Under the pieces are notes generated by a model that was given only the letters and a program-made list of their open reading frames with translations, had not been told where the DNA came from and did not search any database. Positions 10,278 through 15,792 of a stretch of DNA of 64,000 nucleotides are shown piece after piece; positions within the stretch are counted from its first letter, which is position 1, and every line of letters begins with the position of its first letter. The DNA comes from Candidatus Bathyarchaeota archaeon. GTDB taxonomy: Archaea; Thermoproteota; Bathyarchaeia; Bathyarchaeales; Bathycorpusculaceae. Location: assembly GCA_963777155.1 (NCBI GenBank), contig CAVZPM010000011.1, positions 1-64,000 of the forward strand. Direction: 5' to 3'. The position numbers and the translations under genes were made by a program.

Positions 10278-11339
10278 TTACTCTTTCTTTTGTTTGGGAC
10301 GTAGAGAACGCACGGTTTCGCCTGCACGCCACATTTCACTGTTGCCCATTTCTTTGAGTTCGTCAGCGAGTTTCTGGCGGTAATCGGGTGCTTTGCTCTT
10401 TTCTAGAACAATGCGTGTTTCTTCACCTGCTGCGACAAGTTCGTAGAGTGAGTCAAACACTGGTTGAGTTGCTTCGCGGAAACGGCTTCTCCAACGTAAT
10501 GCTCCGATACGTGCCGTTTCGCTACAGTTGCAGTACATCCAGTCCATACCGTTTTCATCGACAAGGCGGATTAAGCTTTGTGTGAGTTCTTCGACACTTT
10601 CATTAAATGCTTCGCTCGGGCTGTGTCCATGTTCACGCAAGGTTTTGTATTGTGCCTCCAGAATACCTTCGAGCGCACCCATCAATGTTCCTCGTTCGCC
10701 TGTTAGATCACTGTAAGTTTCCTTCTCAAATGTGGTTGGAAAGAGGTATCCTCCACCGATGGCGATTCCAAGAGCTTTAGCGCGTTCTTCGGCTTTACCT
10801 GTTGCGTCTTGGAAGACTGCGAAACTGCAGTTAATTCCGCTTCCATCAACAAAGTTTCTCCGAACAGATGTTCCTGAGCCCTTTGGTGCAACAAGAATTA
10901 CGTCAATGTCTTTGGGTGGGATAACGCCTGTTTGTTCTTTGTAGACTATGCTAAAGCCATGGCTAAAGTAGAGTGCATCGCCAGCTTTCAGGGTTGCTTT
11001 GACTTTCGACCATACTGCTTTTTGTGCGGCATCGGTCAGAAGGAACAGTTTGATGGTGCCTTTTTTGGCGGCTTCTTCCATTGGGAAGAGGTTTTTGCCT
11101 GGAACCCAGCCATCTGCGACTGCTTTGTCCCATTCTTTCTTGAAAACACCTTCTTTTTCTTGTCCAACAATTACTTTTATTCCTTGGTCACGCATGTTAA
11201 GCGATTGAGCTTGACCTTGTATACCATAGCCGAGTGAGACTACAACCTCATCCTTTAGGATTTTTTGGGCCTTTGCCAACGTGAATTCTTCTCTAGTAAT
11301 GACGTCCTCTTTGACGCCTCCGAAATCGATTTTCACCAT
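10278..11339 (-). CDS. ilvC: ketol-acid reductoisomerase
   Basis: GYGIQG, FSHGF, APKGSG, SDLTGERG. Confidence 0.95.
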   Translation of the reverse strand: MVKIDFGGVKEDVITREEFTLAKAQKILKDEVVVSLGYGIQGQAQSLNMRDQGIKVIVGQEKEGVFKKEWDKAVADGWVPGKNLFPMEEAAKKGTIKLFLLTDAAQKAVWSKVKATLKAGDALYFSHGFSIVYKEQTGVIPPKDIDVILVAPKGSGTSVRRNFVDGSGINCSFAVFQDATGKAEERAKALGIAIGGGYLFPTTFEKETYSDLTGERGTLMGALEGILEAQYKTLREHGHSPSEAFNESVEELTQSLIRLVDENGMDWMYCNCSETARIGALRWRSRFREATQPVFDSLYELVAAGEETRIVLEKSKAPDYRQKLADELKEMGNSEMWRAGETVRSLRPKQKKE

Positions 11340-11370
11340 TTTTTATGTTACCTCAGCTTCTCCATTTAGC

Positions 11371-11416
11371 GGACGGCATAATTAAGAATTATGTTATAAA
11401 AATTGGGGATAATTAT
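11371..11416. repeat. dif/att-like site 1 (left hybrid): GGACGGCATAA-TTAAGAA-TTATGTTATAA plus an ATAATTAT box
   Basis: shares the 18-bp TAATTAAGAATTATGTTA and a GATAATTAT box at identical spacing with site 2. Confidence 0.7.
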
Positions 11417-11462
11417 TTCAACTAGCCACTAAGAGAGTCGTATAAAGAAAGCGCTAAGTGCA

Positions 11463-11660
11463 CTAAGCGTCATCGAAGATAAACAATTCATCGATAGTAG
11501 TCTGCAGAACCTTTGCTATTTCGTGTGCCAGTTTTAGAGAAGGATTATAGTTCCCTTTTTCTATGAAGAGTATGGTTTCTCTTCGCACGCCTACCTTTTT
11601 TGCCAAATCATCTTGCGTGAAGTTGTATCTTGCCCTTAGCTCTTTGATTCTTGTTCGCAT
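11463..11660 (-). CDS. XRE-family HTH transcriptional regulator
   Basis: [28 protein letters not shown]. Confidence 0.9.
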
Positions 11661-11665
11661 CGCCT

Positions 11666-12001
11666 TCAAGGTTCCCCTTTTATGCCAAAATGCCATCGGA
11701 GCACAAGAAACGACACGCTTGACACTAAAAGCGCTACTATCATCGGGTAACCCGCTTCGATTTCTGGCATACCAAAGAACTCTCTTCCGACGATGTTAAC
11801 CAATAAATATGCTACAATGAAATATTGACCCATGAACATCGCATAGTATGCAGCTTTCCAATTTAGCCTCTGTGTCCGTTCATCATCCAATGGAAATCCG
11901 GACTTTTTGTCTTTGAGTTTTTTCCAAAGAACTAAGATGCCAATTAAAATCATCAACGCAAGTATTCCGATGCTTACACTTGACCAAGTGAAATCTGCCA
12001 T
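11666..12001 (-). CDS. DUF2178-like membrane protein
   Basis: DERT...KA motif and 3 TM helices, adjacent to the XRE HTH gene. Confidence 0.75.
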
Positions 12002-12180
12002 CACGCCACCTCCCGTTTTATGACTTGCACCTTTAGCTTTCTTCTTGTTTTGATAGCGCTTACAATCGATAGCAGCACACCAGCACCGATTAATGAGTAG
12101 CCAATCAGCCAATCTTCGGCAAATACGATTCCAAGAATTACGAACGTAAAGGCAAGAGGTGTGAGTTCTTTGTTTCTCAT
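12001..12180 (-). CDS. small 2-TM membrane protein
   Basis: GGAGG RBS upstream; stop overlaps the next start codon. Confidence 0.65.
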   Translation of the reverse strand: MRNKELTPLAFTFVILGIVFAEDWLIGYSLIGAGVLLSIVSAIKTRRKLKVQVIKREVA

Positions 12181-12210
12181 TTGGTCTAAACCTCCATTAT
12201 TTATTAGTTT

Positions 12211-12250
12211 TAACACACTTTATGTTAGTTATATATAACATTTAGAGTTA
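12211..12250. promoter_or_regulatory. candidate operator inverted repeats flanking the TATA box of the HTH operon
   Basis: TAACA-N7-TGTTA (12211-12227) and TAAC-N7-GTTA (12236-12250) on either side of TATATA. Confidence 0.45.
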
Positions 12251-12388
12251 AAAACATTGTGGTGTTTTCAATCCAACCCCATTTGATTCCAAGAATAATA
12301 AAGGAAATAAAATCCAAATGAATAGTTGCGTCACCATATGTTTGTGCTCGCAACAAGTATGCTATTCCACCTGGAATATATGAGGTTA

Positions 12389-12451
12389 ATAATTATCCCT
12401 AAATTCTCGTCGCTAATTAAGAATTATGTTAAGAATTACCCTGATAATTAT
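12389..12451. repeat. dif/att-like site 2 (complete junction site)
   Basis: ATAATTAT, then ATTAAGAATTAT, then ATAATTAT; left half matches site 3, right half matches site 1. Confidence 0.7.
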
Positions 12452-12534
12452 GCTGAGAATATCAAAAAATATTCTAGGGATATTCCTTACCGTGTCTAAC
12501 TGAAACACTCTTGAAGCATCTGTGGCTTTTGATT

Positions 12535-13053
12535 TTAAGTTGTCTTTCCCATTTCTCTGAAGCGAACCAGGGTGCTCTTGTCTTTGTCTAAGAACATTTT
12601 TCCGCTCTCAACCCTTAGATATGCAGCAAGTGTTCCCAAAGTAGCCATCCCATGAACCACCTTTGTGTTTGGTAGTGCACTCTTGATTCCTCCAAAACCA
12701 GCCATGCAGCTTAAAGCGATTGCGGCATCTGAACCTTCGTAAGCTTTAGCTATGCGGCTTCGGGCTTTCTGATCTAACTGGCAGTAGGGCGGTTGGGGAA
12801 GGTTGAAGTACTTTACGTTTGCAGTTTTTCCTTTACTCTCCAACAATTCCTTTAGGCGATTAGCCTCTTGACCCATCGGGTACGGTTCAAAACGGAAACC
12901 AAAAAGCGATACTCTCCCGATTTCGGCCACGTTCTTGGCGTATCCGATGCTTTGATTGGCACAGTATGGGCACTCAAATATAGTGATGTTTTTTGCGTCT
13001 CCAACTTCTCGAAGAATGTATGCATCGCTTGCAATTTCAGAATAACTTCCCAA
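12535..13053 (-). CDS. Cys-containing hypothetical protein resembling the MetV N-terminal domain
   Basis: IFECPYCA...YCQ...IALSCMAG pattern. Confidence 0.55.
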   Translation of the reverse strand: MGSYSEIASDAYILREVGDAKNITIFECPYCANQSIGYAKNVAEIGRVSLFGFRFEPYPMGQEANRLKELLESKGKTANVKYFNLPQPPYCQLDQKARSRIAKAYEGSDAAIALSCMAGFGGIKSALPNTKVVHGMATLGTLAAYLRVESGKMFLDKDKSTLVRFREMGKTT

Positions 13054-13465
13054 AATAAATCACCACTTTCTCTTATAGTCAAAGTTGTATTTAGCATTAT
13101 TCTAAGTTGAATTTACAGTTAAAAATGATGCAGTGTTTGACTTTAGGCGACTTTATTATGTTATTTGCAGCCGTTACTGGATTCTGACCATGCCTACCCT
13201 ATATTGAAATCTGAATTACGTTAACTCTACATCTGATTATTCATAGAATCATACGTGTATAGCTTGAATCCTGTAAACCCCCCTTAACCAAGCCTGTTTA
13301 TTCCAGAACCATCCAGCGTCGTCATCAATTTTTTTTAAAATTTAATCTATAGGTTGAATATTTTTTCATTGCCTAAACAAGCGTGCGCTTTCGGGGCCTT
13401 TCCGTTTTTTCGCTTTCTCTTCAGAGAAGCTTCTGCTTTGAAAATGAAAGCAAGTAATTGTAACC

Positions 13466-14018
13466 TTAGTTTAGTCCGTTTATGTTTGTGTCTTTAAGGT
13501 TAAATTCTATATAGTAGGTTTGATTTTCAAAAATTGTCGCATAAACAATTCTAACGGGCCACAGAAGAACTTTATCTATGTAATATGTAGCGTTAATTGC
13601 TTCGTTGGTGTAATCGTAGGCTATGCATTCTCGTGTTCCTATGCTTCTAACGGTTATTTTCGTGTTATAGGTTCCTGCAAGTGTTTCACCTTTAGGCTGA
13701 AAGTTAATGTTTGTTTTGTTGACCCATAAAGTGGTTTGGTCGGTTAATGTTGGCGCAAAAGATGTTGCAATTGATGAGTTAGTTTGGATTTGCACGTGGG
13801 TGGCGTTTAAGTCAGTGACTTGTATTGTTTCGTTTATGCTACCTGGTATAGAAAGTGAGTCTATTTGGCCTTCGTATGTTGCATATGCCCCTTTAAACAT
13901 CCAAGACTCAGCCATGCTTTGCTGGGTATTATCTCATAGGTTGGTATCCAATAATCAAAACTAAAGTTGAAATGGCTAAAACGATTGTGAACCCAACAAT
14001 TATCCAACTTTTTCCCAT
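13466..14018 (-). CDS. secreted or membrane-anchored hypothetical protein (frameshifted)
   Basis: signal anchor MGKSWIIVGFTIVLAISTLVLIIG from 14018, continuing in ORF 13466-13915; many N-x-T sequons. Confidence 0.55.
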
Positions 14019-14144
14019 ACTTAGCTAAGGAATGAATTGCGTTAAAAGGGTTATCATGTTTAACAATTTTTCCCTATCCTTTAAGTGTGTATCCAGAAGC
14101 CTCAGCAAACCCAATTTTCTTTACAGTTTACACGTTCCAGATTT

Positions 14145-14194
14145 ATAATTATCAGGCATTTTTCTGACCTTATTAAGAATTATCCCTAAAAACA
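14145..14194. repeat. dif/att-like site 3 (right hybrid)
   Basis: 14145-14183 aligns ungapped with 12389-12427 (28/39 identical by manual count). Confidence 0.7.
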
Positions 14195-14257
14195 CAGCTA
14201 ACTAGTCATCTACAAAAAGCGTAAACCACTTAAACCGTTCTTGTCTAATACCGAATT

Positions 14258-14737
14258 GTGGCATTAAACAAATTCACCCCTGAGCTCATCGCCCCTTGCG
14301 GAATGAACTGCGGGTTATGCAAATCCTACTTAGCTTATTCAAGGGGAGTACCCACCGAAAAAGGCAAAGTATCACATTGCACTGGCTGCCGAATTAGAGA
14401 CAAAAACTGTGCTTTCATCAAGCGGAACTGTCCAAAGAAAGTCGGAAAACAACTCATGTCCTGCTCCGAATGCGATGAAATGCCTTGCAGACGACTGGAA
14501 CATTTGGATCAACACTATCGAGAACATTATTGCTTCAGCATGGTCAATAACCTCAAAGAAATTAAAGAAAAAGGCATGGAAAAATTTCTCAAGGATCAAG
14601 AGGCGAAGTTTCGATGCCCAAGCTGCGGTGATGTTGTCTCTGTACACGATGGCAAATGCTATGCTTGCGGCTACAACTCACCGAATATTGGCAGACGCCC
14701 GGGAACTTTTTGGAAACCAGTCAAAAAAGGTGAGTAA
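14258..14737 (+). CDS. DUF3795 family Cys-rich protein
   Basis: APCGMNCGLC, CTGCR, CSECDEMPC, CPSCG. Confidence 0.85.
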   Translation: MALNKFTPELIAPCGMNCGLCKSYLAYSRGVPTEKGKVSHCTGCRIRDKNCAFIKRNCPKKVGKQLMSCSECDEMPCRRLEHLDQHYREHYCFSMVNNLKEIKEKGMEKFLKDQEAKFRCPSCGDVVSVHDGKCYACGYNSPNIGRRPGTFWKPVKKGE

Positions 14738-14777: not shown

Positions 14778-15690
14778 TTACGCGCCCATTAGATTGAGAT
14801 AAATCGCCTTTGCCGCATACAACCTATTTTCTGCTTGCTCATAAATCACCGACTTCGGGTTCTCTATGGCTTCTGCGCTGATTTCGTAGCCCCGGTGAAT
14901 AGGCATATCATGCATAATGAAGGCGTTGCTTCCTAGTAGCAATTGGGAATTGATTTGGAAGGGCATCATTAACTTTATGCGCTTCTCTTTTTCTGATGTA
15001 AACTTGGGGTCGGTGAAAAACTCCATGTCAATCCACGTGTCGGTGTAAACGAAATCTGCATCCGCAACCGCCTTCTTTACATCCAATGTTGATTGCCAAA
15101 GCCCAGTTTTTTTCGCCTCAGAGAGTAAATCTTCATCTTTTGAGGCTTCGTTGATGATGGGTGTGACAGTGATGAGTTTGACACCTGTCTTGGTGCACCC
15201 TTCAATCAGCGAGTTGGTTACGTTGTTGTGTACACCGATGTAGACGAGTTTGGCGCCTTTAAGTTTGCCATGTTTTTCCTTGATAGTGATTAGGTCTGCC
15301 TAGTGCTTGGCTTGGATGGTACTTTTCGTCGCAGCCGTTAATAATGGGAACACAGGAAGCTTTCGCCATCTTCAGCAGATCCGAATTGCAAAGTAGCCGC
15401 GCCATGATGCAATCGACATTTCGCGACAGGTACTGTATCTCATCTGTTATGTCTGCTAGAGCAAAGTTGGTTGTTCGCCAATCAATGTACAGAGCGTGGC
15501 CGCCAAGCTGGGTCATTGCAACTTCAAACGAGACCCGCGTGCGGGTGGAAGTCTTCTGGAAAATCAACGCTGCCGACTTACCCTCGAAGGTCTTGAGGTA
15601 TTTCTTGGGATTGCTCTTAACTTCAATGCCCAAATCGACGAGTGCGCCAAGTTCTTGACCTGACAACTCTTTGAAATTGATCAGATGCAT
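14778..15690 (-). CDS. argF: ornithine carbamoyltransferase-family enzyme (frameshift near 15300)
   Basis: FQKTSTRT, HPSQA, QAENR; variant HDMP motif. Confidence 0.85.
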
Positions 15691-15792
15691 CTTTTCCGTA
15701 CCTTCCACAGACGCAGAATCAAGCGTGCAATTATAAGCTTTATGCAAAAACCTTTTCCACTAAACTATACAACCACAATAAGGGGAACATCA

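Follow-up and report, generated by a model that had tools for sequence, protein, structure and literature searches.

Gene cassettes in series at a 14-bp core of the ilvC promoter region in Bathyarchaeia: a candidate site-specific insertion system

Known routes of gene gain in archaea are integrase-carrying elements that insert at transfer RNA (tRNA) genes, casposons and, in a few metagenome-assembled genomes (MAGs), bacterial-type integrons. In the attC site of integrons the R'' and R' motifs lie at the outer ends, crossover occurs at R', and arrays hold whole attC sites. A dif-type site is 28 bp long, with two 11-bp arms around a 6-bp spacer, and each pdif module lies between sites that are inverted relative to each other. 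Integrons are reported from archaeal MAGs (PMC9668308), the XerA/dif system of archaea has been described (PMC2958812, PMC8371274), with reports of AT-rich inverted repeats of ~23 bp on either side of the Thermococcales dif, and casposons are described as making 14-15-bp duplications at a target that comprises the duplicated segment and an upstream leader, with tandem elements sharing one duplication (PMC5137440, PMC4779613). Here we describe three related sites that bracket inserted genes in the promoter region of ilvC, in a stretch of 64,000 nucleotides from Candidatus Bathyarchaeota archaeon (assembly GCA_963777155.1, contig CAVZPM010000011.1, positions 1 to 64,000; hereafter the window). 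A literature search turned up no description of these sites. The source genome (G000) amounts to 2.29 Mb in 39 contigs and is 90.6% complete, the window being its contig C11, and the relatives with which it was compared are Bathyarchaeia MAGs from soils, peat and wetlands.

The three sites have in common a core that is best set as the 14-mer TAATTAAGAATTAT, found at 11379, 12414 and 14170, with the third copy reading TTATTAAGAATTAT. A first-pass annotation, made by a model from the letters of the window, had drawn the repeat as the 12-mer ATTAAGAATTAT, and its measurements proved exact: the 12-mer lies at 11381, 12416 and 14172, AGAATTAT at 11385, 12420 and 14176, and boxes of ATAATTAT at 11409, 12389, 12444 and 14145, that is, 31 nt upstream of AGAATTAT at sites 2 and 3 and 24 nt downstream of it at sites 1 and 2. 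An exact match of 18 bp (TAATTAAGAATTATGTTA) is common to sites 1 and 2, sites 2 and 3 are identical at 28 of 39 ungapped positions, and site 1 reads GGACGGCATAATTAAGAATTATGTTATAA. When one mismatch is allowed, the 12-mer has four matches in the window, a number reached by none of 100 shuffled sequences (mean 0.64). The order that the annotation had called left-hybrid, complete and right-hybrid is also found, as flank-core-arm, arm-core-arm and arm-core-flank, with the three sites forming the junctions of inserted DNA. Its gene assignments (ilvC, an HTH/DUF2178 operon, two hypothetical genes and DUF3795) agree with the gene calls and Pfam matches, the two hypothetical genes, open reading frames (ORFs) of 172 and 149 aa, having no Pfam family match. 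We consider site-specific insertion of cassettes at the core of the ilvC promoter very probable. The parts of the locus are the following, with B and B' for the chromosomal sides and P and P' for the arms.

10278 to 11339, minus strand: ilvC, ketol-acid reductoisomerase (Pfam KARI_N and KARI_C), a conserved gene and the fixed side of the insertion point.
11340 to 11378, minus strand: B arm, the ilvC 5' region between start codon and core, conserved in relatives and never replaced, with homology continuing through it.
11379 to 11392, plus strand: core copy 1, TAATTAAGAATTAT, the left junction B-core-P'; empty sites join the left flank to the flank right of core 3.
11393 to 11417, plus strand: P' arm of site 1 (GTTATAAAAATTGGGGATAATTAT), the left end of cassette 1, with box ATAATTAT at 11409.
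11393 to 12413, minus strand: cassette 1, or module A, comprising an HTH_3 regulator (11463-11696), a membrane protein with DUF2178 (11666-12004) and, at 12001-12216, a small membrane ORF, each on the minus strand.
12386 to 12452, plus strand: site 2, complete, with P arm 12386-12413, core 12414-12427 and P' arm 12428-12452; at 68.5 bits the best-scoring match of the site model in the source genome.
12453 to 13403, minus strand: module B, the 172-aa ORF (12535-13053, no Pfam family) and ~350 bp of unassigned DNA (13054-13403).
13404 to 14141, minus strand: module C, the 149-aa ORF (13466-13915), a frameshifted remainder of a 183-aa membrane-anchored protein.
14142 to 14183, plus strand: site 3, the right junction P-core-B', with P arm 14142-14169 and core copy 3, TTATTAAGAATTAT, at 14170-14183.
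14184 to 14737, plus strand: B' flank (CCCTAAAAAC...) and the DUF3795 gene (14258-14737, Pfam DUF3795), conserved and on the far side of the insertion point.

Evidence for insertion comes from 80 ilvC loci of relatives, compared with up to 8 kb of flank on each side (ilvC 84-98% identical). In 47 of the 80, DUF3795 is found no more than 8 kb upstream of ilvC, the gap between the two genes ranging from 140 to 6355 bp, and at the four shortest gaps (L039, L078, L092 and L100) the sequence reads ...TTTAGAGGACGnnn-TAATTAAGAATTAT-CCCTCAA..., without arms. This sequence runs from the flank left of site 1 through a single core into the flank right of site 3, so that the empty site predicted between ilvC and DUF3795 exists in four relatives. 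Because the empty site is the core without arms, the point of exchange lies inside the core. In 76 of the 80 loci the core itself (up to two mismatches) lies 37-41 nt upstream of the start of ilvC, one of the four misses lacking upstream DNA. The core is followed by a P'-type arm beginning with G in 49 loci (with a recognisable GATAATTAT box in 30), by a flank beginning with C in 24 and by other sequence in three. The 200 bp beyond the core form 64 mutually unrelated clusters among these 76 loci, and many different cassettes therefore end exactly at the core. Core matches in the 80 loci are skewed towards one strand (102 to 11, against 17 to 13 for a reversed-core control).

The prediction that relatives would hold different cargo between the same motifs is borne out at the ilvC locus and at other arrays. 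For instance, in the close relatives L032 and L029 identity is 95.5% across ilvC, core and first arm and 92.6% from the last arm on, with unrelated interiors of 676 bp and ~1960 bp and breaks at the arms. None of the window's four cargo proteins was found at the 80 loci at a coverage of at least half their length. The arm and core variant of site 3 also occurs where the insertions of L037, L062 and L074 end on the right, and L073 has it at an internal site. Variants of the core that go with either arm confine the exchange to core positions 3-11, which fits the suggested 7-bp overlap without proving it.

The inserted DNA of the window can be traced in other genomes as well. When 11393-14171 was compared with 120 genomes of the genus, it resolved into three independently occurring modules. 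Module A is 87-90% identical in G122, G132, G100 and G099, where it lies beside other neighbours. Module B occurs alone in G102 (95%), G010, G084, G012 and others, with only the outer half of its arm surviving in G102, and module C occurs alone in G135, G066 and G012 (~90% in all three), G136 and others. In G066 (L113) module C is a cassette between two cores 805 bp apart that adjoins DUF3795, and in G012 it belongs to an array at another locus. Thus, what had been annotated as two tandem cassettes is correct for cassette 1, which is one unit, whereas the second consists of two modules, one with the 172-aa gene and one with the 149-aa gene, that are separate elsewhere. The gene of module C (13466-14020) is split by a frameshift near 13933; its homologue in L113 is a single 183-aa protein with an N-terminal membrane segment, matched by the window from residue 29 on only, and contigs of other sequencing runs carry 1-base indels at 13933-13935. 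Beyond DUF3795, an ornithine carbamoyltransferase-like gene (14778-15747) is also present as two ORFs, 15259-15747 and 14778-15086, separated by ~170 bp in another frame, a split that could stem from frameshifts or an assembly error.

Population data, in the form of assembled contigs of public runs mapped on the window, provide a further view of the locus. A 1189-nt contig of run X5 matches 11295-11396 with 0 differences, carries a variant arm and continues as 12459-13520, with 16 differences in 1061 on module B. Since this contig joins 11396 to 12459, cassette 1 is missing from a near-identical relative, with the break at the core. A contig of run X3 joins 11401 to 13456, and in run X2 loose ends at 11395 carry other arms. 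Contigs of runs X1 and X2 join 12460 to 13404, with sides of only 25-29 nt that make them weak, and the joints 12460 to 13404, 14183 to 14269, 13932 to 14001 and 14847 to 15000 rest on single low-depth contigs or short sides; uncovered parts of the window and small word shares in runs X6-X24 have no evidential weight. Together, the contigs show that alternative occupants of the ilvC core exist in nature and do not demonstrate excision.

The sites are not limited to ilvC. The 12-mer occurs seven times in the source genome, and a full-site profile adds complete or half sites on contigs C12, C36, C33 and C6. An alignment of 21 complete sites (A1) was used to build a sequence model (R1), which has 13 matches in the source genome, one of them the reverse-strand match of a palindromic site already counted. 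The matches form three arrays, on C11, C12 and C36, and single sites on C33 and C6, and all sites in one array share the same orientation. Such co-oriented arrays are present in other genomes too, at several loci besides ilvC. R1 matches 69 of the 120 genus genomes, with up to 21 matches per genome. In a sample of the order, it matches six of 12 genomes of the same genus plus the source genome and none of 128 genomes from 58 other genera; judged by these matches, the site family is confined to one genus. A lone core without arms (AATAATTAAGAATTATT) lies at G000:C14:26034 on the minus strand, ~95 nt upstream of a small gene and in an ilvC-like arrangement of gene and core, and may represent another unoccupied entry point.

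Across all sequence compared, 49 distinct units of 48-5826 bp separate consecutive sites. Most of the units carry complete genes, up to 5.8 kb, and only those of 48-119 bp are non-coding, for which reason a reading of the units as miniature inverted-repeat transposable elements was rejected. The 20 largest cargo proteins include PAS histidine kinases, NosD/beta-helix and PQQ/Ig-like surface proteins, TrmB- and ArsR-type regulators, a GT2 glycosyltransferase, PAP2, TspO and a beta-CASP nuclease. Family assignment left seven of these 20 without a family and found no recombinase among them, in agreement with the earlier description of the cassettes as cargo-only. The smallest units include one of 66-67 bp that carries no gene and lies between two cores in at least five loci (L002:383-477, L028, L130, L128 and L132); it consists of a right-hand arm and ~40 bases, and in L131 the same bases start a DUF1801-type cassette with no second core. 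The source genome has two copies of a DUF1801-like gene, starting with ATG on C12 (C12:536) and with ATA on C36 (C36:134536), and the C36 copy may be dead. The second array of this genome (L001:3700-16300, equal to C36:125700-138300) is situated in an island dense in small paired genes that, by eye from their translations, look like VapBC-type toxin-antitoxin pairs.

A complete site spans ~70 bp and reads AATAATTATC, 4-5 variable bases, ATTTTC, 5-6 bases ending in C, the core TAATTAAGAATTAT and then a right arm of GTTGGNAAWT, ~5 bases and GATAATTAT. Left and right arm form an inverted repeat, and each has two conserved boxes; a G directly follows the core and a C directly precedes it, and the core is itself near-symmetric (TAATT-AAG-AATTA). 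Each cassette accordingly has the right-hand arm (core-GTTGGNAAWT..GATAATTAT) at its start and usually the left-hand arm (ATAATTATC..ATTTTC..core) at its end. A consensus fold of A1 retains only nine box-to-box pairs, none of them with a compensatory change, and arm complementarity is 7.3 within a site and 7.3 within a cassette, compared with 6.4 for random pairs. With no covariation and a complementarity barely over random, the idea of a selected hairpin was dropped, and the arms are therefore read as predicted protein-binding sites. An Rfam scan of 11000-14600 gave no family match except one chance-level snoRNA match, and a scan for bacterial promoters and terminators is uninformative for an archaeon.

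The sites might also be operators and nothing else, for example of the cassette's XRE-type regulator or of an ilvC regulator of the Lrp type. Both box and core are short palindromes, rich in AT and ~2-3 helical turns apart, as an operator would have them, and nine box-to-box pairs without covariation suit protein binding rather than a hairpin. Such a role is nevertheless extremely improbable as a full account, because gene-content breakpoints coincide with cores in relatives, half-sites lie exactly at the ends of insertions, and most cassettes lack such a regulator. The first-pass annotation had named two refuting outcomes, an ordinary operator in many promoters and breakpoints away from the cores; in the source genome the matches are instead three arrays and two single sites, not promoters in general, and the breakpoints are at the cores.

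Exchange could also proceed with no dedicated enzyme, if the ~70-bp palindromic unit were a promoter or terminator module common to many accessory genes and cassettes were swapped, after DNA uptake, by homologous recombination between copies of it. Exchange of this kind has been proposed for the minimal mobile elements of Neisseria. In relatives of the present locus, homology continues through the arms and breaks at the arm edges, and direct repeats of 60-80 bp could drive deletions; furthermore, the core is at the position expected for the TATA box and TFB recognition element of ilvC, judging from its distance to the start codon, and no enzyme was found. However, the empty site shares only 14 bp with cassette sites, and yet 64 clusters follow the core in 76 loci. 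The shared orientation of the sites in an array is not what this explanation would lead one to expect, and neither is the lack of orientation bias in cassette genes (7416 aa of coding sequence on the site strand and 7754 aa on the other), which argues against the unit as the promoter of each gene. We regard homologous recombination alone as rather improbable.

The explanation that we favour, with somewhat more confidence than doubt, is that cargo-only cassettes are serially inserted into the 14-bp core by conservative site-specific recombination, with the enzyme supplied in trans. Cassettes would enter one after another at TAATTAAGAATTAT in the ilvC promoter region, where an enzyme encoded elsewhere would bind the core and probably also the two conserved boxes of each arm, and the core of a circular cassette would recombine conservatively with the chromosomal core. 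Each insertion regenerates the core, so that the promoter side of ilvC stays intact and the site can be used again, and a reversible exchange would account for the rapid loss, replacement and turnover of cassettes. A tyrosine recombinase would be the most likely class of enzyme, and conservative recombination by an enzyme of that class seems evenly poised between right and wrong. Enzymes of this class are common in the genus, being present in 113 of the 120 genomes and often in many copies. Units that lack a left arm are still found between cores in several genomes, and core-to-core recombination therefore fits better than two-ended transposition. The recurrent unit of 66-67 bp, which corresponds to the 5' part of a DUF1801-type cassette with an internal core, is an example of a one-armed unit.

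A number of observations weigh against conservative recombination in trans. Most concern the enzyme. Searches of the source genome for PF00589 and PF00239 gave no match, and tblastn with integrases of the genus recovered only a 37-residue C-terminal fragment of a tyrosine integrase at a contig edge (C7:39-152); because the fragment is at the very edge of C7, the gene was probably cut off by the assembly, and the apparent lack of integrases in this genome is partly an assembly effect. In five genomes (G001, G002, G003, G014 and G081), no integrase was found less than 8 kb from a core match (up to one mismatch), the nearest being 8 kb away. Five integrases of 257-306 aa, from five genomes, are 28-52% identical to each other, and therefore no conserved orthologue, XerA-like in kind, was found among them. 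The commonest integrase family is present in 101 of the 120 genomes regardless of whether they have sites, and was not found at E<=1e-20 in the site-bearing G012, G024 and G137. No integrase or Cas1 gene linked to the sites was found. Other points concern the sites and their products. A clean right-hand junction is missing in many arrays at ilvC, and sites decay; no site is recognisable between modules B and C (13054-13403), leaving module B without a right-side core; and no circles or excision products were seen among the assembled contigs, which cannot reveal them. Finally, arms that are inverted repeats have the look of transposon ends and are not required of an attP.

This last point raises the question of whether the cassettes are casposon-like non-autonomous transposons, their arms being terminal inverted repeats and the 14-bp core a target-site duplication from staggered cuts. 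A casposase-like (Cas1-family) or other integrase acting in trans would target the core beside a leader-like flank, and reuse of the regenerated target would build tandem arrays with single core copies between the elements. The inverted arms, with two conserved boxes each and a terminal G after and C before the core, are as this explanation would have them, as are a direct repeat of exactly 14 bp on either side of each cassette and one copy of it in the empty site. Casposons (PMC5137440, PMC4779613) share the inverted ends, duplications of 14-15 bp, a leader-plus-duplication target and tandem arrays. The pattern of terminal inverted repeats with a 14-bp duplication also suits an att core. Against transposition, one-armed units still lie between cores, rapid replacement of cassettes requires loss besides gain, and neither an arm-bounded element with Cas1 or polymerase nor any autonomous element was found.

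The distribution of Cas1 bears on the same question. A Cas1 fragment of 45 residues with two stops lies ~40 bp after one site of the source genome (S9), at G000:C36:135147-135281 (L001:13148-13282), and may count in favour of transposition. The fragment sits in a ~750-bp segment present three times in this genome, with the other copies at C12:962-1708 and C12:23616-24283, and the widely shared part of that segment is a neighbouring 79-aa gene (29 of 120 genomes), not the Cas1 piece. Also in favour are Cas1 genes that look like stand-alone Cas1, at ten loci of the genus (L155-L164). Those of 394 aa (L160:4766-5950, G085) and 404 aa (L161:9963-11177, G015) were confirmed by Pfam, the large neighbouring ORFs that were scanned encode beta-propeller, radical SAM and restriction-modification proteins, and no cas2, polymerase or array of clustered regularly interspaced short palindromic repeats (CRISPR) was seen among the scanned neighbours. 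However, no site was found in ~5-10 kb of flank on each side of these ten Cas1-solo-like loci, and Cas1 occurs in only 51 of the 120 genomes, the site-rich G002, G120, G121, G127 and G113 not among them. A search of integrase loci L118-L127 and Cas1 loci L143-L154 (E<=1, ~1.5 kb flanks) likewise found no site except for one chance-level match. We therefore consider casposon-like transposition unlikely. A more far-reaching version, quite unlikely in our estimation, holds that a Cas1-family or undescribed integrase inserts gene-sized DNA while duplicating the 14-bp repeat beside the leader-like ilvC promoter flank, in a CRISPR-like array that stores working genes rather than spacers, the stand-alone Cas1 genes of the genus and the Cas1 pseudogenes of site-rich genomes being living and dead forms of the enzyme.

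With the empty core or quite different cassettes at the same place in relatives, the arrays point to a site-specific route, so far undescribed, by which archaea gain and swap genes. It would be a home-grown cassette system of a whole genus, whose sites have a design of their own (a core of 14 bp between two symmetric arms of two boxes each), and it would use several chromosomal entry points, one of them in a housekeeping promoter. Turnover would be very fast, as 64 different neighbours of one core in 76 relatives illustrate. The sites would also provide a defined DNA substrate for finding an archaeal recombinase or integrase, and a route to trace the flow of accessory genes in uncultured Bathyarchaeia of soil and peat. 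If the transposon-like explanation were true, they might represent a link between casposons and CRISPR arrays.

Compared to described systems, the arrays resemble integrons in being chromosomal series of small cassettes, mostly of one or two genes, that have no recombinase of their own, are separated by imperfect palindromic sites of ~70 bp and carry varied, fast-changing cargo. Integron arrays without a neighbouring integrase are common, and a missing IntI alone does not exclude membership. One difference is the position of the break, which is here at the centre of the palindrome, in the 14-bp core, whereas that of attC is at the outer edge. The outer boxes, ATAATTATC and GATAATTAT, are not the R'' and R' motifs of attC, and there is no sign of a hairpin maintained by covariation. 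In addition, no IntI is found nearby, with no PF00589 match in the source genome and none less than 8 kb from core matches in the five genomes examined; cassette genes face either way, rather than being co-oriented behind a common promoter; and each genome has several insertion points, one of them inside the ilvC promoter.

The resemblance of site 1 to a dif-type site, pointed out in the first-pass annotation, serves as a lead only. The 14-bp core lies between partly symmetric arms and may be read as 11-7-11, with the arms of the consensus complete site matching at 7 of 11 positions when inverted (a hand count on A1). The ~23-bp AT-rich inverted flanks reported for the Thermococcales dif are much like the arms described here, a likeness that is likewise a lead only. 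As in pdif modules, the cargo would be moved by an enzyme encoded elsewhere. Unlike pdif modules, however, all sites are in direct orientation, and unlike dif they are many per genome, are not at a terminus and would have a spacer of 7 rather than 6 nt. Furthermore, the five integrases compared across the genus included no conserved Xer-like orthologue, and the source genome yielded only the contig-edge fragment.

Casposons (PMC5137440, PMC4779613) are likewise archaeal; they too have inverted ends and a 14-bp direct repeat at either side, use a specific target sequence whose upstream flank is fixed, and in tandem are split by one copy of the repeat. In contrast, the elements described here are 0.05-6 kb long, have neither Cas1 nor polymerase among the cargo examined and are in some cases one-ended, and no Cas1 gene is linked to their sites. 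With lambda-type elements, whose hybrid attL/attR sites are the work of tyrosine integrases, the arrays share the order B-P', P-P', P-B' expected after successive integrations, a core common to attB and attP, and a target that is regenerated; they differ in having no integrase gene in the element, in the symmetry of their arms and in the target, which is a promoter core and not a tRNA gene (nine of ten array loci have no tRNA gene, and the one in L132 is ~470 bp off). The first-pass annotation had taken the locus for an archaeal analogue of pdif modules or integron cassettes, a likeness that does not extend to the features by which either is defined and that holds for cargo-only cassettes apparently moved by something encoded elsewhere.

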